The translations under genes were made by a program, and so were the position numbers. Positions 2,270-25,012 of a stretch of DNA of 33,568 nt are shown one piece after another (the first letter of the stretch is position 1; every line of letters starts with the position of its first letter). Below the pieces are notes generated by a model. It was given only the letters and a program-made list of their open reading frames with translations. It was not told the origin of the DNA and searched no databases. Source of the DNA: a plasmid; assembly GCF_988242995.1 (NCBI RefSeq), contig NZ_OZ547045.1; one strand, 5' to 3'.

Positions 2270-3310
2270 TTAGCGCCGTGAACCCTTTGCGAAACCCTGC
2301 ATTTGAGAGGTCGCAGCGGAGGCCGCACCTGCGCCGGGGCCACCGGCAGCGGTAGCCGCCGCAGTCTTAGCACCAGAGCCGCCACCGGCACCCGCAGAGC
2401 CTTTTTGACCACCATCGCGGAGAGCGCCACCCCCACGGCTACCACCACCACCGTTGTTAGGAACCAGCTCCTGAATGCCCGCAGAAACACCATCCCCCCA
2501 ACGAGCGGCAATTTCAGGTACTCGCTGAAGGATCAGGTAAGAGACAATCATTATCAGCAGACACGCGAACACCGGCCCTAACAGGCTGGTATCAGCCCCG
2601 GAAGCGGTGACGGCATCGAGTGCCTTTTGATAGAACTTAATCATCAAGCCAAACAGCATCGACAGCAGGATTGTAACCAAGCCATAGTTAATCAACGAGC
2701 CAAGCCATTTATTGAACATGCCATGCAGCGGCTTGAATAACAGGCAGAAAATAAAGACAGGCCCAAAGCACACAGTGATTGCCAACAGTAACTTCGCCAT
2801 CAATATCAGCCCGGCCCCGATACCACAGATCAGCACCGTGGAGATAATGACGGCACAAGCCAGGAACAAAGACGCCAACCCGGAACCGCTATAAATATCG
2901 GCGTTATCAAATGCAGTACGTGCAACCTGCATCCCGTCATGAATAGCCTTGTCAATGTTGTTACCCATTGCATCTTCAGTGCCACCAGTCGAACCGTTAA
3001 TAACCAGCACCGAGGAAAACTCATCGGGGATCTTCATGGCCGCATCAGCCAGTTGGGTTTGATACAGCCCGCCCGCACTGGCAAAGCTGATTATCATCGA
3101 CCACACAATGAATTTTTTTATCAACGATGAGAGCGGATCACCATGTGGACGCGCTAATGTAAAAAGCCCGTCCAGGGTTAGTTTGCAAATCAACGCTAAC
3201 CCGATTACCGGTGAAATGGTGGATATAACAATTCCAAGATTAGAGGCCACAAATTCCTTTGTGACCGTATCCATGTAATTGAAAAGATCCGTTGTAAATG
3301 AAAAGGCCAT
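2270..3310 (-). CDS. virB6: VirB6/TrbL-family polytopic T4SS membrane protein with a Gly/Ala-rich C-terminal tail
   Basis: 346 aa with multiple TM helices. The last ~60 aa are GGGGSRGGGALRDGGQKGSAGAGGGSGAKTAAATAAGGPGAGAAS. Synteny supports the call. Confidence 0.88.
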   Translation of the reverse strand: MAFSFTTDLFNYMDTVTKEFVASNLGIVISTISPVIGLALICKLTLDGLFTLARPHGDPLSSLIKKFIVWSMIISFASAGGLYQTQLADAAMKIPDEFSSVLVINGSTGGTEDAMGNNIDKAIHDGMQVARTAFDNADIYSGSGLASLFLACAVIISTVLICGIGAGLILMAKLLLAITVCFGPVFIFCLLFKPLHGMFNKWLGSLINYGLVTILLSMLFGLMIKFYQKALDAVTASGADTSLLGPVFACLLIMIVSYLILQRVPEIAARWGDGVSAGIQELVPNNGGGGSRGGGALRDGGQKGSAGAGGGSGAKTAAATAAGGPGAGAASAATSQMQGFAKGSRR

Positions 3311-4287: not shown

Positions 4288-6924
4288 TCACGCTGCGAGT
4301 ACAGATTTAAAGTAGGATTCGAGCCATTTATCAGGGGTATCATCCCCAATTTGCTCAATGATTTTCGCCAGTGTTTCGGCGTTTTGTGGTTCCCCTGACA
4401 GGATGCTAAGTATCTTGTCCAGCTTCCTGAAGTTCTCAGGCGTCTTAACGCGCGGGGCCAGGTTGAATTGCGCCATCGCACTTTGACTACCTTGTTTCAC
4501 AAGGAACTGGCGGGAGTTCTCAGGAATAGACAACAGCGCGTCAAACTCTGCCGGTGTCAGCTTGAGACGGGTTACGTAGTCCTCATAATCCGCATCCGGG
4601 TTTTCCAGAAGAATTTTAGTTACGCACTGCTGCATGATGGTTTTGCCAATGGCACTATCCAGCGCATCGTTTGGCTCTTGCGTGGAGAATACGTAAACCG
4701 CGTCTTTCTTACGGTCTGTTTTCAGGCCGCGTTTCACTTCCACCCGCATAATGGGATCGTCAAGGTACTGGTGAAACTCGTCGAATATCTGAATAACCCG
4801 GCGGCGGCCATCAATAGACTGACGCACACGGAAATTGAGATACATCAGCAGCGGTGTACGTGTTGCAGGAGGTATTTCATTATCTGCAACAATGAAATCA
4901 GTCAGGTCAAAACCGTAAATATCGTACTCACCGAGATTGAGGGAATCCGCGTCGTTATCGAACAACCACCCGTTTTCATGGCCGCGAGTCCACGGAACAA
5001 GCAACGATGCCAGCGTTTGTTTGCTACCCGCTGTTTGATATGGGTTAGGCATCTGACGCATCAACATATCCACGGTACGTAAATCCGTAGGGATAAGGGA
5101 GTTCTCATCCATCAAAGCGTCAACAGCGCGGTTAAGGTCATTCACCTGATCAGCATCGAGCACACTGCCTTTGGTAATTTCAGCACACAGGCGCATCAGG
5201 CGCTTACAAAACGCAATGTTAACTTTAGTGCCTGGCATCTGTAGAGGTGCCCACCCGGACGCAACACCTTCTTTCAAAACTGTATAGTGACCGTGTAACG
5301 CTTTAATCAGCGGCATCATGCCCTGATCACGGTCATAGGCAAAAATGCGCGGGTTATACTTCATTGATTGCGTCAGCAGGAAATTAAGCAGCGTCGTTTT
5401 ACCGGCCCCCGAACGGCCAAGCATTAACGTATGCGCCAGCGGGCGCTTACCGAAAGACATTTCATCTGCGGGCGTTACATGAAAGTTCATATACAGCGGC
5501 GTATTTGCCACAGTCTTGAACAACGTCAGTGCTGGCCCCCACGGATTATTGTTTGCTTTCCCGGACATAAAATTATGGAAAGGAGAGAAACAAAGAAAAT
5601 TCCAGCTATTCAGCGGGCAAGGGCGCGGCGATAAATGTTGATTAGCCGGGAGTTTTGCATAATAGGCCGCTTCGGAAGCTAACCCTACCTGGCTGGCGAT
5701 CAAGCCGCAATTGTTCAGCATATTTCTGGCTACACCGGCGTTTGAACGGGCCTCTTTGAGAGACTTGCCAAAGGTGTGTACCGTCAAATGATGCCAGCCC
5801 ATGATAAAGGTACGTGAAACCACGCCATCAACGGCGTCACTCATCTGGTTTATCTGCGTAAAGGACGGATCGCCTGTTTCCAGCAGCGCTTTTTGCTGGT
5901 TAGTAAGGTAAGTTCTTGCCGCTTGCTGGGACATACAGCAATACGTTTGAGTTAATACAAACTCAAACGGTGCTTCCATCAGGATATTGATTTGACCTGG
6001 TTCTGTATCAGAATCGTAATCCCGGATTTCAACGGCAGACGTGTAGCGGCGTTCGTCAGTACCGCGAATCTCGATACCATCCCCCCAAAATGAGGATATT
6101 GGGCGGGTAGTAGCTAAATATTCACGGATTCGGCCACGACAAACCGGCACTGGTGCCCACTCACCGTTAACCAGGTAATAGAGCCACTCAAGCGCTTTAG
6201 AATAGGTGTGTTGAGCACCACTAAAGACTTCTTTATCTTCCTGAATGTCCTGATATTCCACATCAGCCAGTAAATCCTCACGCAGATCGATAATGTCCTC
6301 ATCATCATCTTCTTCTGCATCTTCCTTTTTCTGCTCAGGAATGACATTCCCTCGCTTGTCGCGGAAGTAATAGCCTAAACGGTCGATGCCATAAGGACGC
6401 AGGGAGTTCATGACCTGCTCACAAACATCTTCCAACGCACCAATAGCATCAGTTTGCATTTCGCGCAGCTCGTCAGCCGATGGCTTATCAAACTTTGCCA
6501 GCATTTTTTGAGCGGCATCCCCTACCGGGTTATAAACAACCGTTAGGTAGAGGTCATTTACCATCATAGGAGTATCATCAAACTGATCGCGATAGTATTC
6601 ATTCACCATGCGCGGGAACGTCATATTGTAATGCGTGTCAGGATAATTATTAATTTCGCGGTGGTGTAAGTGAGTCCATAACTTAATATGTTCACTACCA
6701 ATACCCTTTAAAAGCTGATTTAAATCGGCATGCCACTTAATAAGTTCGGCATCAGAAGCGCAATCATGAGTTCGCCCCCGAATTTTAAATACAGAAAGGT
6801 ACTCCCCATTTACCGTACTGATAATATGAGGTGTTACATGGTAGGAGTAAGGAATATATTTTAAAGAGGATGGTTCTTTTCTGTAATCTTTAACCCCCCT
6901 CTTTTTCATTTCCGCTACGGCCAT
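4288..6924 (-). CDS. virB4: VirB4-family T4SS ATPase
   Basis: 878 aa with Walker A GRSGAGKTTLLNFLL. Length and synteny are typical of VirB4/TrwK/TraB. Confidence 0.95.
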   Translation of the reverse strand: MAVAEMKKRGVKDYRKEPSSLKYIPYSYHVTPHIISTVNGEYLSVFKIRGRTHDCASDAELIKWHADLNQLLKGIGSEHIKLWTHLHHREINNYPDTHYNMTFPRMVNEYYRDQFDDTPMMVNDLYLTVVYNPVGDAAQKMLAKFDKPSADELREMQTDAIGALEDVCEQVMNSLRPYGIDRLGYYFRDKRGNVIPEQKKEDAEEDDDEDIIDLREDLLADVEYQDIQEDKEVFSGAQHTYSKALEWLYYLVNGEWAPVPVCRGRIREYLATTRPISSFWGDGIEIRGTDERRYTSAVEIRDYDSDTEPGQINILMEAPFEFVLTQTYCCMSQQAARTYLTNQQKALLETGDPSFTQINQMSDAVDGVVSRTFIMGWHHLTVHTFGKSLKEARSNAGVARNMLNNCGLIASQVGLASEAAYYAKLPANQHLSPRPCPLNSWNFLCFSPFHNFMSGKANNNPWGPALTLFKTVANTPLYMNFHVTPADEMSFGKRPLAHTLMLGRSGAGKTTLLNFLLTQSMKYNPRIFAYDRDQGMMPLIKALHGHYTVLKEGVASGWAPLQMPGTKVNIAFCKRLMRLCAEITKGSVLDADQVNDLNRAVDALMDENSLIPTDLRTVDMLMRQMPNPYQTAGSKQTLASLLVPWTRGHENGWLFDNDADSLNLGEYDIYGFDLTDFIVADNEIPPATRTPLLMYLNFRVRQSIDGRRRVIQIFDEFHQYLDDPIMRVEVKRGLKTDRKKDAVYVFSTQEPNDALDSAIGKTIMQQCVTKILLENPDADYEDYVTRLKLTPAEFDALLSIPENSRQFLVKQGSQSAMAQFNLAPRVKTPENFRKLDKILSILSGEPQNAETLAKIIEQIGDDTPDKWLESYFKSVLAA

Positions 6925-13068: not shown

Positions 13069-13953
13069 GTGACAGATAAATCAGTACCAGCGAAGCAGAT
13101 AAAAACGGTAAACACCGGAATCGCGATTAAAGAGAATCCCCCCAAAGGGGATGATATGGCATTCACCCATTCGATATTGTGTCAAGTTGGCCTCCCCCGC
13201 TCTAAAGTGGATGGCCGGGAGTTCATGAGAAAATCAGGCGATGCCTGGCTAGTTGTCCAGGCCGGCTGGCTTGATGAAGGAAGCGGCCCGGTAGAACAAC
13301 CGATCCCCTACGGCTCAATGCCCCGTTTAGCGCTCGCCTGGGTATCGTCGTATGCACTCCGCAAAAAGACCCGCGAAATACCGATCGGTAAGAGTGCTAA
13401 TGAGTTCCTGCAATTAATGGGTTTATCAGGCGGCGGCAGACAATACAAAACACTACGCGAACAAATGCACGCGCTGGCAGCTTGCCGGTTGCAGTTAGGT
13501 TTTAAAGGTCGTTCTTTCAACGGCCAGCCTGTAGAGCAATTCGATGCCTGGCAGAAAGACGACCAAAGCGGCCAGCTAAGTTTATGGCCGGGCGTAATGA
13601 CCCTTTCAGAAGGGTACTTTAATGGGCTGATTGATAGCGCCGTTCCTCTCGATAACCGCGCTCTGTACGCGCTAAAGGGTTCGGCATTGTCGTTAGATGT
13701 TTATACGTGGCTTGCGCATCGTCTACACCGCATCCAGGGCCGACCGATTAAACTTCACTGGATGAATTTACGGGAGCAGTTTGCGCAAGAGTATATGGGT
13801 AAAGACCCTGACAAAGATTTTAAGAAGAAATTTCTTCCAGCTCTGCGCGACGTACTGACTGTATACCCACAGGCGAAGGTGGATAAAGTCACCGGAGGGA
13901 TATTACTGTATCCGTCTCCCCCACCTATCCCGTTCAAGGAAGGAAAAAAATAG
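13069..13953 (+). CDS. repA: Replication initiator RepA
   Basis: 294 aa with a GTG start and a GAAGGAG SD. FTHSILCQVGLPR... resembles the replication initiator protein A family, as I recall it. An iteron array lies immediately downstream. An alternative start is M30 at 13156. Confidence 0.75.
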   Translation: MTDKSVPAKQIKTVNTGIAIKENPPKGDDMAFTHSILCQVGLPRSKVDGREFMRKSGDAWLVVQAGWLDEGSGPVEQPIPYGSMPRLALAWVSSYALRKKTREIPIGKSANEFLQLMGLSGGGRQYKTLREQMHALAACRLQLGFKGRSFNGQPVEQFDAWQKDDQSGQLSLWPGVMTLSEGYFNGLIDSAVPLDNRALYALKGSALSLDVYTWLAHRLHRIQGRPIKLHWMNLREQFAQEYMGKDPDKDFKKKFLPALRDVLTVYPQAKVDKVTGGILLYPSPPPIPFKEGKK

Positions 13954-14056: not shown

Positions 14057-14400
14057 TTATCCACGTACATCCGACCCCCCTGATTACCGTACATCCGACC
14101 CCCCTTGTCGTACATCCGACCCCCTAGCTTTGTACATCCGACCCCCTAAGTCGTACATCCGACCCCCTTTTTTTGTACATCCGACCCCCTATTTTTTGTA
14201 CATTAGACCCCCTGAAAATACGTACATCAGACCCCCCCTAAACCTATAAGGTGATCTCCTGTAGGTTTCCTGTAGTTTGACCGATAGCACTTAACCTATA
14301 AATTTTGCTTCTAAGAGATCAGCCTGTATGAATGCCCTCCGATAATTTATTCAATAAAATCAGTGGATAAAATAATAAATCGAATAATTTAAGTTCAGTG
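14057..14400. other. oriV region: DnaA boxes flanking the iterons plus an A+T-rich segment
   Basis: TTATCCACG at 14057..14065 abuts iteron 1. GTGGATAA (the box on the minus strand) is at 14363..14370. The stretch 14330-14400 is strongly A+T-rich. Confidence 0.7.
14065..14238 (+). repeat. oriV iterons: 8 direct repeats of GTACATCCGACCCCC
   Basis: Copies start at 14065, 14089, 14110, 14132, 14153, 14175, 14198 (GTACATTAGACCCCC) and 14222 (GTACATCAGACCCCC). Spacing is 21-24 bp. Confidence 0.9.
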
Positions 14401-15133: not shown

Positions 15134-15579
15134 CGCCTCAGAACCCCGTAGAGCCATTCAATCAGAAAAAAGCGGCCTCATGTACAGCTCAACCAAAATA
15201 GCCGCTTACAGAGCCATACAGCGCGTATATAACCAATATCGCCCGGCGGCACCGGCGCTAACGTGCCTGTAGGGGCGCTGGCCGCGCTGCGGCCATCCCC
15301 CCAACACCCGGATAAATCGCGCCCGGCCCGTCGCTACGCGCCAGCCCGCCCGCTCAACCGGGCCGTTGTGACGGGCCACTGTTCCGGCAGCGGCATCGTG
15401 TGACAGCCCGCTAAAACCGGCTTTGCAGGGAGGGGGTGGGCGCGTCTCCCGGTTTGATCCCGCAAGGCCCGGCAATTTGACCACGTCGCCCAGGTTGAGA
15501 TCGGCGCAGTTGCCTTTTATTTGTCGGCATCGGCGCTAAATTTAAGTAAATTTATCGTACTATATAATGATACTTAAAG

Positions 15580-15608
15580 TTGACTTTTGAGGGGGAAAAG
15601 CCTATACT
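15580..15608 (+). promoter_or_regulatory. Promoter P1 (TTGACT-N17-TATACT)
   Basis: -35 at 15580..15585, -10 at 15603..15608, exact 17-bp spacer. AATGATAC lies just upstream. Confidence 0.75.
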
Positions 15609-15615
15609 TTATTTA

Positions 15616-15690
15616 CGGTTAGCAATGGTGCTGACCGACCCGGAACCAGTGGCGGCAACCGCTCCGGGGAACTTGCGAAGGGGGCAAGAA
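15616..15690 (+). promoter_or_regulatory. Structured leader L1 (hairpin 1 + hairpin 2 + TGCGAAGG SD block)
   Basis: CGGTTAGCA-ATGG-TGCTGACCG, then CCCGG-AACC-AGTGG-CGGCAA-CCGCT-CCGGG, then TGCGAAGG 10 nt before the ATG. Confidence 0.7.
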
Positions 15691-16297: not shown

Positions 16298-16341
16298 GTC
16301 TTTAAAGTACAATTAAAAGTAAAAAATAATGATACCAATAG

Positions 16342-16370
16342 TTGACTTATGGAGGGTGAACACCTATACT
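16342..16370 (+). promoter_or_regulatory. Promoter P2 (TTGACT-N17-TATACT)
   Basis: -35 at 16342..16347, -10 at 16365..16370. AATGATACC lies upstream. It has no GC-rich CUP segment. Confidence 0.75.
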
Positions 16371-16378
16371 TTATTCAT

Positions 16379-16453
16379 CGGTTAGCAATAGTGCTGACCG
16401 GCCCGGAACCAGCGGCGGCAACCGCTCCGGGCAAACTGCGAAGGAGTAATATT
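16379..16453 (+). promoter_or_regulatory. Structured leader L3
   Basis: Hairpin 1 has loop ATAG. Hairpin 2 is full length. CTGCGAAGGAG precedes the ATG at 16454. Confidence 0.7.
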
Positions 16454-17961: not shown

Positions 17962-18264
17962 ATGGCAGTAGAACGCATTTCCCCTGAAGAATGGCAGCGC
18001 ATCGCACCGGCATTGCGTACATGCAGCCAGGTAACGATCGATATGGCTTATGCCGTACTGGTTGATGGCCGTAAACAAGTAGATGTGGCGTCAGAGTTTG
18101 ACCGGTCAAAGCAAACGGTCAATGCGGCTATCAGGCGCGTTACTGCAATTTTTAACGAGGTTATCCCGGAAGATGAGCAGTTAGAATTTGTACAAGTCTG
18201 GTTGCCGCCAGAGCTGGCGAAGCAGGTAAAAGAAATGGCTAAACCGTATCAGAATAAAAAATAA
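17962..18264 (+). CDS. KorA/TrfB-family HTH repressor (ArdK-like candidate regulator of the leading-region promoters)
   Basis: 100 aa. The protein is colinear with RK2 KorA as I remember it (...TIDMAYAVLVDGRKQVDVASEFDRSKQTVNAAIRRV...). Confidence 0.7.
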   Translation: MAVERISPEEWQRIAPALRTCSQVTIDMAYAVLVDGRKQVDVASEFDRSKQTVNAAIRRVTAIFNEVIPEDEQLEFVQVWLPPELAKQVKEMAKPYQNKK

Positions 18265-18848
18265 CAGGAGTTATCGACATGTGTGAGTACGGATTTAAAA
18301 ACTAACTGAAAAAAATCACTTATGGCGTTCCCTGCGGGGCGGGCTTTCGTGCTGCGCATCGAGCCAGGCAAGCTGTCTCGCCCCTTCGGGCTTCAATCCC
18401 TAACGCCTCCGGGCTGTCGCCCTCCGCGCTCCGCTTGACCCCCACGCCCTGCGCCGGACTTGCCCCGCCTACGGCGGCCCCGCCCCTCCGGGGTGGCTTC
18501 GCCATCCTCTGCCAGCGGCACCGGCGCTAACGTGCCTGTAGGGGCGCTGGCCGCGCTGCGGCCATCCCCCCAACACCCGGATAAATCGCGCCCGGCCCGT
18601 CGCTACGCGCCAGCCCGCCCGCTCAACCGGGCCGTTGTGACGGGCCACTGTTCCGGCAGCGGCATCGTGTGACAGCCCGCTAAAACCGGCTTTGCAGGGA
18701 GGGGGTGGGCGCGTCTCCCGGTTTGATCCCGCAAGGCCCGGCAATTTGACCACGTCGCCCAGGTTGAGATCGGCGCAGTTGCCTTTTATTTGTCGGCATC
18801 GGCGCTAAATTTAAGTAAATTTATCGTACTATATAATGATACTTAAAG

Positions 18849-18877
18849 TTGACTTTTGAGGGGGAAAAGCCTATACT
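18849..18877 (+). promoter_or_regulatory. Promoter P3 (TTGACT-N17-TATACT)
   Basis: -35 at 18849..18854, -10 at 18872..18877. Confidence 0.75.
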
Positions 18878-18885
18878 TTATTTAT

Positions 18886-18959
18886 CGGTTAGCAATGGTG
18901 CTGACCGACCCGGAACCAGCGGCGGCAACCGCTCCGGGCAATCTGCGAAGGTGGGAATT
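18886..18959 (+). promoter_or_regulatory. Structured leader L4
   Basis: Full hairpin 1 and hairpin 2, with CTGCGAAGG before the ATG at 18960. Confidence 0.7.
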
Positions 18960-19848: not shown

Positions 19849-20003
19849 TACTTATGGCGTTCCCTGCGGGCCGGGCTTTCGTGCTGCGCATCGAGCCAGG
19901 CAAGCTGTCTCGCCCCTTCGGGCTTCAATCCCTAACGCCTCCGGGCTTTCGCCCTCCGCGCTCCGCTTGGCCTCCGGGCTTTCGCCCTCCGCGCTTTGCT
20001 TGG
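19849..20003 (+). repeat. Partial CUP module M1 with an internal 33-bp tandem duplication
   Basis: Matches the first ~120 bp of copies B and C. The unit CCTCCGGGCTTTCGCCCTCCGCGCTCCGCTTGG (19938..19970) is repeated at 19971..20003 with 2 substitutions. Confidence 0.85.
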
Positions 20004-20380: not shown

Positions 20381-21004
20381 GCTCCCCTTGCTTACCCTGC
20401 TGTACGATCCGTGGATTTCACAGTTGAATAATTTTTTGTGGTCGCCGTAATTGGCCCCGCTGCGCCAGTCGCTTACTTAGGGCGTTCCCTGCGGGCCGGG
20501 CTTTCGTGCTGCGCATCGAGCCAGGCAAGCTGTCTCGCCCCTTCGGGCTTCAATCCCTAACGCCTCCGGGCTTCGCCCTCCGCGCTCCGCTTGGCCCCCA
20601 CGCCCTGCGCCGGACTTGCCCCGCCTACGGCGGCCCCGCCCCTCCGGGGTGGCTTCGCCATCCTCTGCCAGCGGCACCGGCGCTAACGTGCCTGTAGGGG
20701 CGCTGGCCGCGCTGCGGCCATCCCCCCAACACCCGGATAAATCGCGCCCGGCCCGTCGCTACGCGCCAGCCCGCCCGCTCAACCGGGCCGTTGTGACGGG
20801 CCACTGTTCCGGCAGCGGCATCGTGTGACAGCCCGCTAAAACCGGCTTTGCAGGGAGGGGGGGGGCGCGTCTCCCGGTTTGATCCCGCAAGGCCCGGCAA
20901 TTTGACCACGTCGCCCAGGTTGAGATCGGCGCAATTGCCTTTTATTTGTCGGCATCGGCGCTAAATTTAAGTAAATTTACCGTACTATATAATGATACTT
21001 AAAG

Positions 21005-21033
21005 TTGACTTTTTAGGGGGGAAAATCTATACT
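21005..21033 (+). promoter_or_regulatory. Promoter P4 (TTGACT-N17-TATACT)
   Basis: -35 at 21005..21010, -10 at 21028..21033. Confidence 0.75.
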
Positions 21034-21040
21034 TTATTTA

Positions 21041-21113
21041 CGGTTAGCAATGGTGCTGACCGACCCGGAACCAGCGGCGGCAACCGCTCCGGGTAATCTG
21101 CGAAGGAAAATGT
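21041..21113 (+). promoter_or_regulatory. Structured leader L6
   Basis: Full hairpins 1 and 2, with CTGCGAAGG before the ATG at 21114. Confidence 0.7.
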
Positions 21114-21727: not shown

Positions 21728-21746
21728 CCCTCTATTTATGTCTTAT

Positions 21747-21771
21747 TTTAGTATCATATTATGATACTAAA
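21747..21771. promoter_or_regulatory. Perfect 25-bp palindromic operator abutting promoter P5
   Basis: TTTAGTATCATA-T-TATGATACTAAA. The right half (ATGATACT.AA) is the element conserved upstream of P1-P4. Confidence 0.65.
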
Positions 21772-21773
21772 TA

Positions 21774-21802
21774 TTGACTTATCAGGCCGCAAAAAGTATA
21801 CT
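21774..21802 (+). promoter_or_regulatory. Promoter P5 (TTGACT-N17-TATACT)
   Basis: -35 at 21774..21779, -10 at 21797..21802. Confidence 0.75.
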
Positions 21803-21810
21803 TTATTTAT

Positions 21811-21851
21811 CGGTTAGCAATGGTGCTGACCGTATGCGAAGGAGTAAAGTT
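21811..21851 (+). promoter_or_regulatory. Truncated leader L7 (hairpin 1 + TATGCGAAGGAG; hairpin 2 absent)
   Basis: CGGTTAGCA-ATGG-TGCTGACCG is joined directly to TATGCGAAGGAG. Confidence 0.6.
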
Positions 21852-22043: not shown

Positions 22044-22082
22044 AGCGGCGGCAACCGCTTTTTTATGCGAAGGAGCAACGCG
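22044..22082 (+). promoter_or_regulatory. Partial leader L8 (hairpin-2 core + T-run + TATGCGAAGGAG)
   Basis: AGCGG-CGGCAA-CCGCT-TTTTT, then ATGCGAAGGAG before the ATG at 22083. Confidence 0.55.
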
Positions 22083-22265
22083 ATGTATCTATCTTTGATG
22101 GAACAAGCACGACAGGCAGAGGAATTGCGCGACTGGAAAACCGCCGCGCAACTCTACACCCAGGCGATGGCCGTTAGTCCAAAAGCCAGAACTATGCGCC
22201 AGCGCCGCGAAAGGCTGTATCTGCAACAGCGCATTGAGTTTTGCGAGCGTAATTCGAGAATGTAA
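22083..22265 (+). CDS. Hypothetical helical small protein (60 aa)
   Basis: The ATG at 22083 follows leader L8. A bidirectional terminator follows. Confidence 0.55.
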   Translation: MYLSLMEQARQAEELRDWKTAAQLYTQAMAVSPKARTMRQRRERLYLQQRIEFCERNSRM

Positions 22266-22306: not shown

Positions 22307-23074
22307 TTAGGCTGCCTGGTATTCTGCCTTTCCGCAGTGTTCGCCGCCACAGTACAGAATTAGGCCCGGTTTCCCCCAAACGTTGGTATGGCATTTCGGG
22401 CAGGTGTATTTTGTCCGGTTTGATTTATTAACCGGCGTATCCGGTGGCGGGTTTACCAGGGAAAGGGCTTGCGTGATCTCATCATCCAGCTCGCCATTGT
22501 CGCTGTAACCCTCATCATCATCGCCATCATCAACATAACCTTTGCCGTCTGCGCCGGTTGGCGTTGGTGGCGTTGGTTTGTGCGGTGGGAACCTGTCCAG
22601 CCAGCTCAGTTTAAACTCCGTGGTTAGCAACTCCTTGCAGGCTGTATCAAACGGGCCGCCGTCCTCGATGTAGTGGCTCATCGACTCACCGACGCGCTTT
22701 CCTCCGGGCTGGCCGCTGTCGGATGGTATCAGGCCGATGCGCTCCATCATCGCCGCCCACTCTTTATTGTGGTATCCACGGCGTCCCGGTTGGCCGGTGT
22801 GTTGTTGGTACTGGTGAACCATTTCATGCACAAGCGTGGAAAGTGTGTCGCGTATCGTGCGGATCGAGAAATAGACCGGATTCATGGCGATTTCATCAAC
22901 GATTTGGCCGGTTGTGCGGCCAACAAAACGGGCATTTGAGAAATAGCCAAACGTTCGTTTTTCGCGCTGAAGGGTGATTAGGCAGGGCGGCAGCGTACTA
23001 TCAAACAGCCGCTGATTGAAAAATTCGTATGCGCGTTGAAGCTCGTCGTAAGTTTCCTGGGTAGGGATGATCAT
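22307..23074 (-). CDS. SprT-like zinc metalloprotease with a C-terminal zinc ribbon
   Basis: HEMVH motif in an SprT-like context (LSTLVHEMVHQYQQ...YHNKEWAAMMERIGL). The C-terminus is CPKCHTNVWG...YCGGEHC. The likely start is MIIPTQ at 23074 (GAGG SD). The ORF-track start at 23113 lies inside an operator. Confidence 0.75.
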   Translation of the reverse strand: MIIPTQETYDELQRAYEFFNQRLFDSTLPPCLITLQREKRTFGYFSNARFVGRTTGQIVDEIAMNPVYFSIRTIRDTLSTLVHEMVHQYQQHTGQPGRRGYHNKEWAAMMERIGLIPSDSGQPGGKRVGESMSHYIEDGGPFDTACKELLTTEFKLSWLDRFPPHKPTPPTPTGADGKGYVDDGDDDEGYSDNGELDDEITQALSLVNPPPDTPVNKSNRTKYTCPKCHTNVWGKPGLILYCGGEHCGKAEYQAA

Positions 23075-23096: not shown

Positions 23097-23140
23097 TGGA
23101 TTGTGCAATCCATTTTATTGCTTATGGATTGTGCAATCCA
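23097..23140. promoter_or_regulatory. Two copies of the 16-bp motif TGGATTGTGCAATCCA flanking a -10-like TAAAAT (minus strand) of the SprT-like gene
   Basis: Copies at 23097..23112 and 23125..23140. The minus-strand TAAAAT corresponds to 23112..23117. Confidence 0.6.
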
Positions 23141-23151
23141 CTTTTATTTTG

Positions 23152-23233
23152 GGCGTTCCCTGCGGGCGGGCTTTCGTGCTGCGCATCGAGCCAGGCAAGC
23201 TGTCTCGACCCTTCGGGCGTCAATCCCTAACGC
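23152..23233 (+). repeat. Isolated copy of CUP module M1
   Basis: GGCGTTCCCTGCGGGCGGGCTTTCGTGCTGCGCATCGAGCCAGGCAAGCTGTCTCGACCCTTCGGGCGTCAATCCCTAACGC matches the M1 segment of copies B and C, apart from one missing base and about three substitutions. Confidence 0.85.
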
Positions 23234-23242
23234 AATCCAGGC

Positions 23243-23270
23243 AAAAAAAAGCGGCCCGCATGGGGCCGCT
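23243..23270 (-). terminator. Rho-independent terminator of the stbABC operon
   Basis: The minus strand reads GCGGCCCC-ATGC-GGGCCGC followed by T8. Confidence 0.8.
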
Positions 23271-23287
23271 TCCGGTCAGGCTTTTTA

Positions 23288-23656
23288 TCAGTGCAGCAGG
23301 AACGTTATAGCCGCCGCGCCGAGCGCTCCACCAACAAAGGAACAGACAACCGTGATAATCAGTATCTGCCTGATAAGCGCTTTCGAAAACCCTGTATGCG
23401 CCCCGGCCAGACGTTCAAAAAATTGTTCGCTAACCTTCTGCTCCTTCTTCAGAGTGTTGACCAGCTCGCGCTGGCTTGCGATCACTTCTGTTTTCGCAGT
23501 CTCCGATGATTTTGCTATCGCGTCGGAGGCTTTATCCAGCCGTTCTATTGCTTCGGTAACGCTTACACTTACACTTTCCAGTTTTGAGGTGATTTCTTTA
23601 GCATCGCCTAAAAACCAGTCCATCAGGACATCTAATTTATCAGGTTGCTTTTCCAT
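23288..23656 (-). CDS. stbC: StbC-position protein with a C-terminal TM helix
   Basis: 122 aa. It is the third gene of the stb-like operon. The assignment is by synteny only. Confidence 0.55.
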   Translation of the reverse strand: MEKQPDKLDVLMDWFLGDAKEITSKLESVSVSVTEAIERLDKASDAIAKSSETAKTEVIASQRELVNTLKKEQKVSEQFFERLAGAHTGFSKALIRQILIITVVCSFVGGALGAAAITFLLH

Positions 23657-23657
23657 A

Positions 23658-24368
23658 TTATTCAGCCGTTAATATTTCAAAGGTGCGATCAAGATTACGT
23701 TTAACCGGTAATGCTAATTTCATCCAGCGATAACGACGCGCAGCCGCCGCACGTTCATCGGCATCGGTGCAAGTTTTAGCTTTTGCTTTAAAGGTTTCTG
23801 GATCTTCTGCCAGCAGTTCTTCAAACGAAATTTTGTGATACGCGAGGTATTCATAAATTTCACTTTCAAAAACGGCGGCATCTTTATGAATAGAGGCTTT
23901 TTTAGAATCTTTCGCCCATTCATATACCGAAGCAATATCCTCCTGCGGAGTCGATTTAATGCGGTTAGGCAGAAGAACAATTTTAGATTTAGGAACGCCA
24001 GCGGCACTTAACGCGAGGGCGGTCTTAATACTTTCCTGCCATGCTTTATCATCCGGGGTGACAGGAATCAGATATTTATCAAATTCGTCAATTGCACCCT
24101 CATATTTTGTCATGGTAGAAAGAAACCGCTCAACGTTCGACGCGCCAATATCCACGATGGCATTATCTTCAAATACGATTTCTTCAACGAGTTGACCAAA
24201 GTTATCGCCGGTTAAGCTCATCACTTCATCAACACCCAAATCCGCAGCCGACATATTGATTGTCTCGATGGCAAAGAATTTAGCGCCAGCCATGCGAGGA
24301 TACAGCAGGTATGACGAAATAATGGTTTTGCCGACGCTGCCACTGTAATTCATTACTGCAATTTTCAT
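23658..24368 (-). CDS. stbB: ParA/MinD-like ATPase (StbB-like)
   Basis: 236 aa with a deviant Walker A at the N-terminus (MKIAVMNYSGSVGKT). AAGGAG SD. Confidence 0.8.
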   Translation of the reverse strand: MKIAVMNYSGSVGKTIISSYLLYPRMAGAKFFAIETINMSAADLGVDEVMSLTGDNFGQLVEEIVFEDNAIVDIGASNVERFLSTMTKYEGAIDEFDKYLIPVTPDDKAWQESIKTALALSAAGVPKSKIVLLPNRIKSTPQEDIASVYEWAKDSKKASIHKDAAVFESEIYEYLAYHKISFEELLAEDPETFKAKAKTCTDADERAAAARRYRWMKLALPVKRNLDRTFEILTAE

Positions 24369-24380
24369 CTGTAAGCTCCT

Positions 24381-24815
24381 TTAGAAACCTTTCTTATTAC
24401 CTACGCTACCTTTGAATGAGGTTGCGACTTTCTTTGCCTCATCACCAATTTTTTTAAAATCGGTATCGGATAAAAATTCTTTGTTCCCGCCCATATCCTC
24501 AACTAATTTTTCTGGTTCTGGATTGTGCAATCCAGTTTCCACCGGTTCCGCTTTCTCCTGCTCTTTTGGATTGTGCAATCCAGTATTTACCGTACTTTCT
24601 GGATTGTGCAATCCACCTTTTTTGCGTTTCAATCTTGCCCGGTACAAGGCCATATCTAACGCTTTCACAGTCACAGAAAAGCTGTATTCACTATCAAGAA
24701 GTTGAGCAATTTCTTGCCTACTAATACCCTTGTCTAACAAACCTTCAATCTCATCAAGACGCGCTCTTACAGCCGCAGCGAGATTGCGAGGTTCCAGTAA
24801 AAGGTCTTTTTTCAT
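24381..24815 (-). CDS. stbA: StbA-like DNA-binding protein (N-terminal HTH, repetitive linker)
   Basis: 144 aa. It is the first gene next to oriT. It has an HTH-like segment (GISRQEIAQLL) and three GLHNP repeats. The assignment is by synteny with R388/pKM101. Confidence 0.65.
   Translation of the reverse strand: MKKDLLLEPRNLAAAVRARLDEIEGLLDKGISRQEIAQLLDSEYSFSVTVKALDMALYRARLKRKKGGLHNPESTVNTGLHNPKEQEKAEPVETGLHNPEPEKLVEDMGGNKEFLSDTDFKKIGDEAKKVATSFKGSVGNKKGF
24519..24615. repeat. Three further copies of TGGATTGTGCAATCCA inside the stbA coding sequence
   Basis: Copies at 24519..24534, 24567..24582 and 24600..24615. All are in the same orientation as the two at 23097..23140. Each encodes GLHNP. 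Confidence 0.9.
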
Positions 24816-24876
24816 ACCACCCCCGCTTGTCGAATTTCACTATATGGCAGCCTGTTTTAGCTGTCAATCGGTTTTT

Positions 24877-25012
24877 GTAGTATTTCAGTAGTATTCCTGT
24901 AGTAATTCAGTAGTAACGCTTGTCGATACCGCTCATTTTTGTAGTATATCTGTAGTAATGGCTATTTCAGTTTGTAGTATTTTAGTAGTAATTCAGTAGT
25001 ATCGGTGTAGAA
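24877..25012. repeat. Phased GTAGTA repeat array (putative StbA-binding, centromere-like site)
   Basis: GTAGTA at 24877, 24888, 24899, 24910, 24941, 24952, 24974, 24985 and 24996, plus GTAGAA at 25007. Within each cluster the copies fall on an 11-bp lattice. Confidence 0.7.

Follow-up and report, generated by a model that had tools for sequence, protein, structure and literature searches.

Why should a plasmid keep one and the same 16-bp sequence both at the promoter of one gene and, three times over, inside the coding sequence of another, and which protein reads it? This question is raised by a stretch of plasmid DNA of 33,568 nucleotides (NCBI RefSeq assembly GCF_988242995.1, contig NZ_OZ547045.1), called here the window, which represents a nearly complete plasmid of the IncN3 type, with pN-Cit as a relative. 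The motif, TGGATTGTGCAATCCA, is present upstream of a SprT-like gene, annotated in plasmids as mpr or mpR, "zinc metalloproteinase", and within stbA, the first gene of the stbABC operon. We propose, with moderate confidence and from comparison of sequences, that it is an "Mpr box", that a dimer of the Mpr protein binds it and represses its own promoter, and that the boxes located in stbA are auxiliary Mpr sites.

A scan of the whole window finds TGGATTGTGCAATCCA as exactly five copies on the + strand, at 23097, 23125, 24519, 24567 and 24600, in agreement with the preliminary description of this DNA, which reported five perfect copies. No degenerate copy is found in the window beyond these five when up to three mismatches are allowed. 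In dinucleotide-preserving shuffles of the window, the mean number of motif matches is 0.46 and none of 100 shuffles reaches 10, the observed count. The dyad had been described with 6-bp arms; the arms are in fact 7 bp long (TGGATTG and CAATCCA) and surround a 2-bp centre, so that the box is a 7-2-7 inverted repeat, TGGATTG-YR-CAATCCA. In IncN3 relatives, which are 82-95% identical, all five box positions are kept with diverged flanks, and the central dinucleotide is TG, CA or CG, the last of which makes the box a perfect palindrome. The common orientation attributed to the five copies is set by the central TG alone and, because this dinucleotide varies among the relatives (their promoter copies carry CA, TG or CG), it is not a conserved property.

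Boxes of the same family accompany mpr in other plasmids and genomes. Homologues of mpr are present in 2611 PLSDB plasmid records (tblastn), including IncN, IncX3 and IncU plasmids. The sequence TGTATTG-YR-CAATACA stands upstream of mpr in IncN1, in an 82-kb IncN-like plasmid and in pLE43E, TGTATCGTACGATACA (TGTATCG..CGATACA) is found at mpr in IncX3, in a related Salmonella plasmid and in a Collimonas plasmid, and TGGATTG..CAATCCA at mpr in the IncU plasmid pMBUI7. Pseudomonas plasmids also carry the box, or a symmetric variant of it, just upstream of their mpr homologues. In the IncX3 plasmid, the related plasmid and the Collimonas plasmid, the box occurs only once per plasmid, where the operon containing mpr has its promoter. 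The pattern GGATTGNNCAATCC, representing two boxes 10-40 bp apart, was searched for in 185,579 species genomes and matches 20 loci belonging to Pseudomonas, Stutzerimonas, Variovorax, Roseateles, Burkholderia, Halomonas, Shewanella, Photorhabdus, Morganella and others; in 13 of the 20, the pair is placed directly ahead of a homologue of the SprT-like gene (47-60% identity). Among metagenomic mpr loci, 54 of the 77 usable ones display a family-type palindrome between -200 and +20, and the box density reaches 3.96 per kb in this interval versus 0.065 per kb elsewhere in the same loci. The boxes lie 20-140 bp upstream of the mpr homologues, often as a pair around the -10. From these comparisons, the association between box and mpr is regarded as near certain.

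The position of the boxes relative to the mpr promoter also recurs. The real start of mpr in the window is MIIPTQ with GAGG ahead of it, the ATG at 23113, within the motif, being a mechanical start of the open reading frame (ORF). The two upstream boxes are spaced by 28 bp, with the hexamer TAAAAT (23117-23112, - strand) between them, and had been recognized as bracketing a -10-like element in the manner of an operator. This arrangement is supported by about 25 distinct loci from other plasmids, in which the proximal box follows a TAnnnT hexamer by 0-2 nt. At the position equivalent to TAAAAT, the hexamer of homologous loci is TATTAT, TAGTAT or, in several of them, TATAAT, and in two-box loci the distal box overlaps the -35 position. 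A simple consensus promoter scan does not call the mpr promoter of the window. By their placement, the boxes of this promoter would form an ordinary autoregulatory operator arrangement.

No gene other than mpr is invariably linked to the box. It is also the one gene that all box carriers have in common, if type IV secretion genes, a resolvase and a weak match to the KorA family are set aside, and co-variation between Mpr residues and box bases was therefore tested in 92 Mpr sequences, 71 of which have an assigned box. Base 6 (mirror 11) is T with Arg220 in 53 of 53 cases and C with Lys220 in 17 of 17, which amounts to 70 of 70 overall and a ratio of mutual information to entropy (MI/H) of 1.0; residue 220 predicts this base perfectly with two residue types, whereas the next column attains 94% using ten types. 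At base 3 (mirror 14), G accompanies Glu130 and T accompanies Gln130 (MI/H 0.82, against 0.52 for the runner-up column), and column 130 predicts this base with 93% accuracy. Boxes with A at base 5 are associated with Gly-Lys-Arg or Gly-Val-Arg at residues 218-220 instead of Ser-Asn-Arg. The single TGGATCG locus (L091) combines Glu130 with Lys220, as both rules jointly predict.

On the Mpr tree the box classes are intermingled, and parsimony places five base-6 changes and five residue-220 changes, all on the same branches. The nearest relatives of the IncN3 Mpr (69%) are proteins of the other box class, and the IncX3 Mpr (K220, C6) is 70% identical to R220/T6 proteins and about 46-50% identical to other K220 proteins. 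In six held-out loci with no near-gene box, the only exact palindrome, located farther off, is of the class predicted by residues 130 and 220. Among further PLSDB homologues, two agree with the residue rules and two have no box. Contacts of Glu with C:G, of Gln with A:T and of Arg with a TpG step are common in protein-DNA complexes. In Mpr, residue 130 comes before the strand 133-136 and residues 218-220 come before the zinc ribbon's first strand. The specificity of Mpr would obey a simple residue-to-base code, and this co-variation makes it fairly likely that Mpr itself is the protein binding the box.

The three remaining copies are located within stbA, where each is read as Gly-Leu-His-Asn-Pro (GLHNP) in the linker of the protein, as the reading frame and alignment confirm. 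The product of this gene matches NCBIfam StbA_2 with an E value of 3.8e-23, under the curated cut-off, and is 36% identical to the IncN1 StbA. Pairwise diversity in stbA is 3.6% in the motif columns versus 19% in the remaining linker and gene, and all copies use the same rare codon set, GGA TTG CAC AAT CCA. The stbA gene of IncN1 has three boxes too, which belong to the IncN1 class and are read V/G-L/M-H-N-T (VLHNT); the two symmetric base changes leading from the IncN3 to the IncN1 box are both non-synonymous in StbA and match the IncN1 promoter box. In Pseudomonas plasmids, the corresponding part of stbA holds a single box, which is read in another frame as VDCAIQ, and in L066, a metagenomic plasmid with the third box class, TGTATCGTACGATACA is found in a stbA-like gene and read VSYDT. 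Since the frame or the peptide of the boxes differs among lineages, it is the DNA that is under selection, as had been suspected from the identity of the copies. In each lineage, the intragenic box matches the box of its own mpr promoter, so that the GLHNP repeat would be a by-product tolerated by the variable StbA linker. The copy nearest stbB is always about 140-155 nt ahead of the stbB ATG, that is, at the end of the variable linker, and the linker keeps the box through at least three specificity changes. Since stbA boxes recur and are conserved in four lineages, the intragenic copies are considered functional sites, which upholds the earlier view of them. In that case stbA would be a clean example of a protein-binding site kept inside a coding sequence, in frames that differ by lineage.

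Proteases of the Spartan family are DNA-dependent. Mpr matches the SprT-like Pfam domain PF10263 (E 3.5e-11), its HExxH motif (H83, E84 and H87) is invariant in 79 sequences, and its predicted model is confident, with the DNA-bound SprT domain of Spartan (structure 6MDX) as the best match. Literature searches covering Mpr, SprT and leading regions turned up no account of Mpr binding DNA, and string searches for the motif and its variants returned only eukaryotic C/EBP sites. In papers on RA3, mpR is listed among the genes of unassigned function (PMC7414963).

On the Mpr-box explanation, Mpr would bind the box as a homodimer, in which residue 130 would read the outer base 3 of each half-site and Ser218-Asn219-Arg220, ahead of the zinc ribbon, would read the inner bases 4-6. 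Bound to 23097-23140, Mpr would occlude the -35 and the start site and so repress mpr. The three boxes of stbA would be further Mpr sites, kept at the DNA level, for which a role as transcriptional roadblock or auxiliary operator is preferred, this being the least certain step of the mechanism. The genes stbB and stbC are located downstream of the stbA boxes in the same operon. As Mpr accumulates, read-through at the end of stbA into stbB and stbC would decrease and the StbA:StbB balance would shift after the plasmid has become established. The stb genes enter the recipient first, and the StbA and StbB proteins of R388 have antagonistic effects on conjugation and stability (PMC3098194). Other roles conceivable for the stbA boxes are those of auxiliary operators or of protease docking sites near the origin of transfer (oriT).

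Several points weigh against the Mpr-box explanation, which is based on comparative sequence analysis throughout. A box within 200 nt is lacking in about 30% of mpr loci, an Acinetobacter homologue has no box, and three genome loci contain box pairs with no mpr nearby. Asp130 is found with both G3 and T3, and the Mpr tree is a neighbour-joining tree of divergent sequences, so that the count of independent switches is approximate. In a Pfam search, only the SprT-like domain is detected in Mpr and no recognised sequence-specific DNA-binding domain; the same search finds no such domain in StbA, StbC or the small neighbouring ORFs. As to the stbA boxes, the search for an internal promoter between them and stbB gives only a weak 9/12 match. 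Moreover, mpr is about 11 kb from stbA in IncN1; this distance speaks against a simple loop to the mpr promoter, and looping is consequently not the general explanation.

Palindromic operators are normally read by helix-turn-helix (HTH) or ribbon-helix-helix (RHH) dimers, and the box could be bound by a separate plasmid-encoded repressor (a protein of the ArdK/KorA family, StbA, StbC or a hypothetical protein of the leading region, possibly a small HTH/RHH protein), Mpr being only its target. A gene of the TrfB/KorA family is present in IncN3, IncN1, IncU and several other box carriers, and box pairs stand upstream of non-mpr genes in loci L009 and L014. Such a repressor is nevertheless unlikely, as no regulator besides Mpr is common to all box carriers, no promoter of a regulator gene has the box in the complete plasmids examined, the single box of the IncX3-type and Collimonas plasmids is at the mpr operon, and the residue-to-base co-variation within Mpr would be left unexplained. 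The regulators singled out as possible binders in the preliminary description, among which the SprT-like protein itself does not figure, do not suit the box either. The KorA-like protein is of the ArdK type, and published ArdK operators are TTGACA direct repeats beside the -35 (PMC9723621), whereas the box is an inverted repeat without TTGACA; repeated TTGACT-type promoters sit elsewhere in the window, within CUP repeats. The sites of StbA are short direct-repeat arrays upstream of stbA by oriT (stbDR; PMC3098194), of which the 11-bp direct repeats at 24874-25012 are the type found here, whereas the box is palindromic and lies in stbA and at mpr. The RHH and H-NS-like proteins are not common to the IncU and IncX plasmids with the same box. 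Further candidates are rejected on similar grounds: the operator of RA3 MobC, AGCGTCTG^CCGCCGCT, is unrelated to the box, and the klcA and korC promoters of pMBUI7 lack the box expected for a KorC of RA3 type. A ParB/KorB centromere or global operator does not fit, given the lack of any annotated ParB/KorB gene in IncN3 relatives, and the IncU plasmid pMBUI7, which has KorB, carries boxes at mpr and res and not at the korA or korB promoters. A resolvase might be suggested by the pMBUI7 box upstream of res, but the resolvase promoter of the window has no box. Resolvase sites also have an architecture unlike that of the box. A conserved host transcription factor or nucleoid protein, timing expression of the leading region after plasmid entry, would explain why identical TGGATTG..CAATCCA boxes occur in plasmids of Enterobacterales, Pseudomonas, Burkholderiales, Halomonas and Shewanella, and the half-site CTGTAT of the third class (class C) is like that of LexA. 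It is very improbable because plasmids of the same enterobacterial hosts use different classes (TGG... in IncN3, TGT...ATTG in IncN1, TGTATCG in IncX3), the class tracking Mpr residues and not host taxonomy. LexA itself is rejected since its SOS box needs CTGT-N8-ACAG, whereas the arms are TGGATTG in the window and the IncX3 variant is CTGT-N10-ACAG, with class C arms 2 bp too wide.

Other alternatives concern what the boxes do. Mpr could be a site-addressed protease: besides being operators, the boxes would dock and activate this Spartan-like, DNA-dependent metalloprotease at set positions in the leading region, within stbA and a few hundred bp away from oriT. It would there cleave proteins on the incoming plasmid (relaxase remnants, host restriction or nucleoid-silencing proteins, StbA complexes), with one or two residues (E/Q130, R/K220) retuning its specificity between plasmids so as to avoid cross-talk; this is possible, if unlikely. 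More broadly, the boxes could be non-transcriptional cis sites for Mpr docking and activation near oriT, for pairing or partition, or for recombination, of which the promoter pair would be one use only. Non-promoter boxes do exist (in stbA, after the mpr terminator in L015 and upstream of res in pMBUI7), and a DNA-dependent protease, as Spartan-family members generally are and as the fold match of Mpr would imply, is compatible with docking. The commonest and most conserved position, however, spans the -35 and -10 of mpr as an operator does, the boxes have no flanking direct repeats, duplications or crossover-like features, and the resolvase promoter of the window is devoid of a box, so that this broader alternative is improbable. 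Nothing was found in support of the partition-site or recombination-target roles once suggested. Finally, the intragenic copies might be kept because StbA needs the threefold GLHNP peptide, their identity with the promoter sites being coincidence or recent gene conversion. Every IncN3 variant, L006 with its 61%-identical StbA among them, does keep GLHNP in frame, but a peptide need does not account for the rare codon set shared by all copies, for the VLHNT of IncN1 produced by two non-synonymous symmetric changes that match its promoter box, or for the Pseudomonas box in the other frame (VDCAIQ) and the VSYDT of L066; hardly any weight is given to it. The coordinates on which the Mpr-box explanation relies, together with those of neighbouring features, are collected in Table 1.

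Table 1. Positions in the window of the proposed Mpr boxes, of the mpr and stb genes and of associated signals
Feature	Position	Strand	Remark
mpr, SprT-like zinc metalloprotease gene, 255 aa	22307-23074	-	proposed box binder
Mpr Ser218-Asn219-Arg220 codons, just ahead of the C-terminal zinc ribbon	22415..22423	-	co-vary with box bases 4-6
Mpr Glu130 codon, segment GGKRVG-E-SMSHY	22685..22687	-	co-varies with box base 3 (and 14)
Promoter-proximal Mpr box, TGGATTG-TG-CAATCCA	23097..23112		starts on the last base of the -10; spans the likely mpr transcription start
-10-like hexamer TAAAAT, between both boxes	23112..23117	-	read from sequence
Promoter-distal Mpr box	23125..23140		overlaps the mpr -35 region; kept in IncN3 relatives despite diverged flanks
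Intrinsic terminator, between stbB/stbC and mpr	23247-23273
stbC	23288-23656	-	NCBIfam StbC score above cut-off
stbB	23658-24368	-	NCBIfam StbB score above cut-off
stbA, host gene of three boxes	24381-24815	-	N-terminal DNA-binding domain, variable linker, conserved C-terminal tail
Intragenic Mpr box 3, stbA linker, GLHNP	24519..24534		nearest stbB, 151-166 nt ahead of the stbB ATG
Intragenic Mpr box 2, stbA linker, GLHNP	24567..24582
Intragenic Mpr box 1, stbA linker, GLHNP	24600..24615		overlaps a weak promoter-like match TTGAAA-18-CACAAT
stbA promoter TTGACA-17-TATAGT	24867-24839	-	outside the box family
stbDR-like 11-bp direct repeats	24874-25012		upstream of stbA; outside the box family

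Some boxes are found away from mpr. The pairs without mpr are located at 233-295 in L014, at 897-951 in L009, which has an additional site at 6503, and at 3692-3758 in L023. One such pair, on a Thiomonas contig, is upstream of a DNA methyltransferase gene; another, on a Thauera contig, is upstream of an integrase-like gene, and this contig has a third copy where a RecG-like helicase gene begins. The box regulon may reach beyond mpr. Two orphan boxes are known from plasmids: that at 2988 in pMBUI7 (L029) is just upstream of the recombinase gene res of this IncU plasmid, and that at 3217 in the Pseudomonas plasmid L015 has the mpr terminator on one side and a convergent gene on the other, a place in which one would not expect a promoter. 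The IncX3 box (L035 20086; L036 12376) extends to a 26-bp perfect palindrome, TTATCTGTATCGTACGATACAGATAA, the half-site of which, CTGTAT, equals the LexA half-site with arms 2 bp farther apart than in an SOS box.

Around mpr and the stb operon, further elements are present. A family of GC-rich repeats of about 125 bp is found in the window at 18318-18443, 19850-19975, 20475-20600 and 23145-23270, one copy directly adjoining the mpr operator pair; a homologous element adjoins the operator pair in Pseudomonas plasmids (L011/L015/L020) and in pLE43E (L032). The single-stranded folding of the element beside the operators is no better than that of shuffles, and an Rfam search of the window gives no match. 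A small ORF convergent with mpr, at 22065-22265 (+), encodes 66 aa with a weak TPR-like match and has an apparent counterpart at the same position in the Pseudomonas plasmid L015 (3237-3482, -), as judged by eye from the translations. The genes of the RHH protein, the coupling protein and the MobF relaxase are divergent from stbA, and the StbA-StbB-StbC order next to oriT is confirmed. Beside the putative oriT, the 11-bp direct repeats, (T/C)(A/G)GTAGTA, form two clusters at 24874-24915 and 24971-25012, both of which resemble the StbA-bound stbDR sites of R388 and are distinct from the palindromic box.

Elsewhere in the window, three near-identical CUP-like repeats of about 400 bp (15148-15640, 18417-18907 and 20573-21063) each end with a TTGACT...TATACT promoter, and two partial copies of the CUP promoter are located at 16302-16444 and 21734-21832. 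These repeats are probably the ArdK regulon of the leading region, and an ArdK/TrfB-like gene is present at 17962-18264. Just after repA (13069-13953), a run of units of about 22 bp (GTACATCCGACCCCC...) at 14064-14196 presumably represents the replication iterons.

Thousands of resistance plasmids carry genes of the mpr/SprT-like type in their leading or maintenance regions. If the Mpr-box explanation is true, a cognate 16-bp DNA site and autoregulation would be the first concrete property of mpr genes, and Mpr would be, to our knowledge, the first protease of the SprT/Spartan family that reads a DNA sequence, with a residue-to-base code simple enough to be tested by two point mutations. Through the stbA boxes, mpr would in addition be tied in with the stbA/stbB switch between vegetative stability and conjugation.

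Proteases such as Spartan, SprT and Wss1 need DNA to act. Mpr resembles them by its SprT-like Pfam domain, its invariant HExxH, its zinc-binding C-terminal element and its best model match (6MDX). Unlike Spartan, which binds DNA by structure (single-stranded DNA, junctions), Mpr would read a 16-bp palindrome. We know of no role of Spartan as a transcription regulator, whereas autoregulation is suggested for Mpr. In the leading regions of R388, an IncW plasmid, and pKM101, an IncN plasmid, genes are controlled by ArdK and StbA, as for PardC and others (PMC9723621, PMC3937220, PMC3098194). The gene that follows stbABC in the leading region of R388 is ardC, also encoding a metalloprotease-domain protein, and in the window it is mpr; in R388 and pKM101, the gene in this same genomic place is under tight repression by plasmid factors. 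ArdK operators (TTGACA direct repeats) and StbA sites (short direct repeats) are unlike the 7-2-7 palindromic Mpr box, which the other leading-region promoters of the window do not have and which, in contrast to those systems, appears to be read by the regulated protein itself.

Operator copies in coding sequences or far from promoters are also represented by lac O2 in lacZ and by remote or intragenic KorB sites of IncP-1 plasmids, which are high-affinity copies kept by selection on the DNA. Unlike lac O2, the stbA boxes are three in number and belong to an operon other than that of the regulated promoter, at a distance of about 11 kb from mpr in IncN1. The union of catalysis, sequence-specific DNA binding and autoregulation in one polypeptide is shared with LexA and CI of the S24 family, with PutA and with BirA. 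Mpr differs from all of these in its unrelated fold and chemistry, those of a zincin metalloprotease, and in having no detectable HTH or RHH; its DNA-reading elements would be a loop that follows the catalytic domain and a basic strand that precedes the zinc ribbon. What would set this system apart is a Spartan-type reader with no recognisable HTH or RHH, retuned by one or two residues, whose operator is also embedded in the coding sequence of another gene, in several frames.

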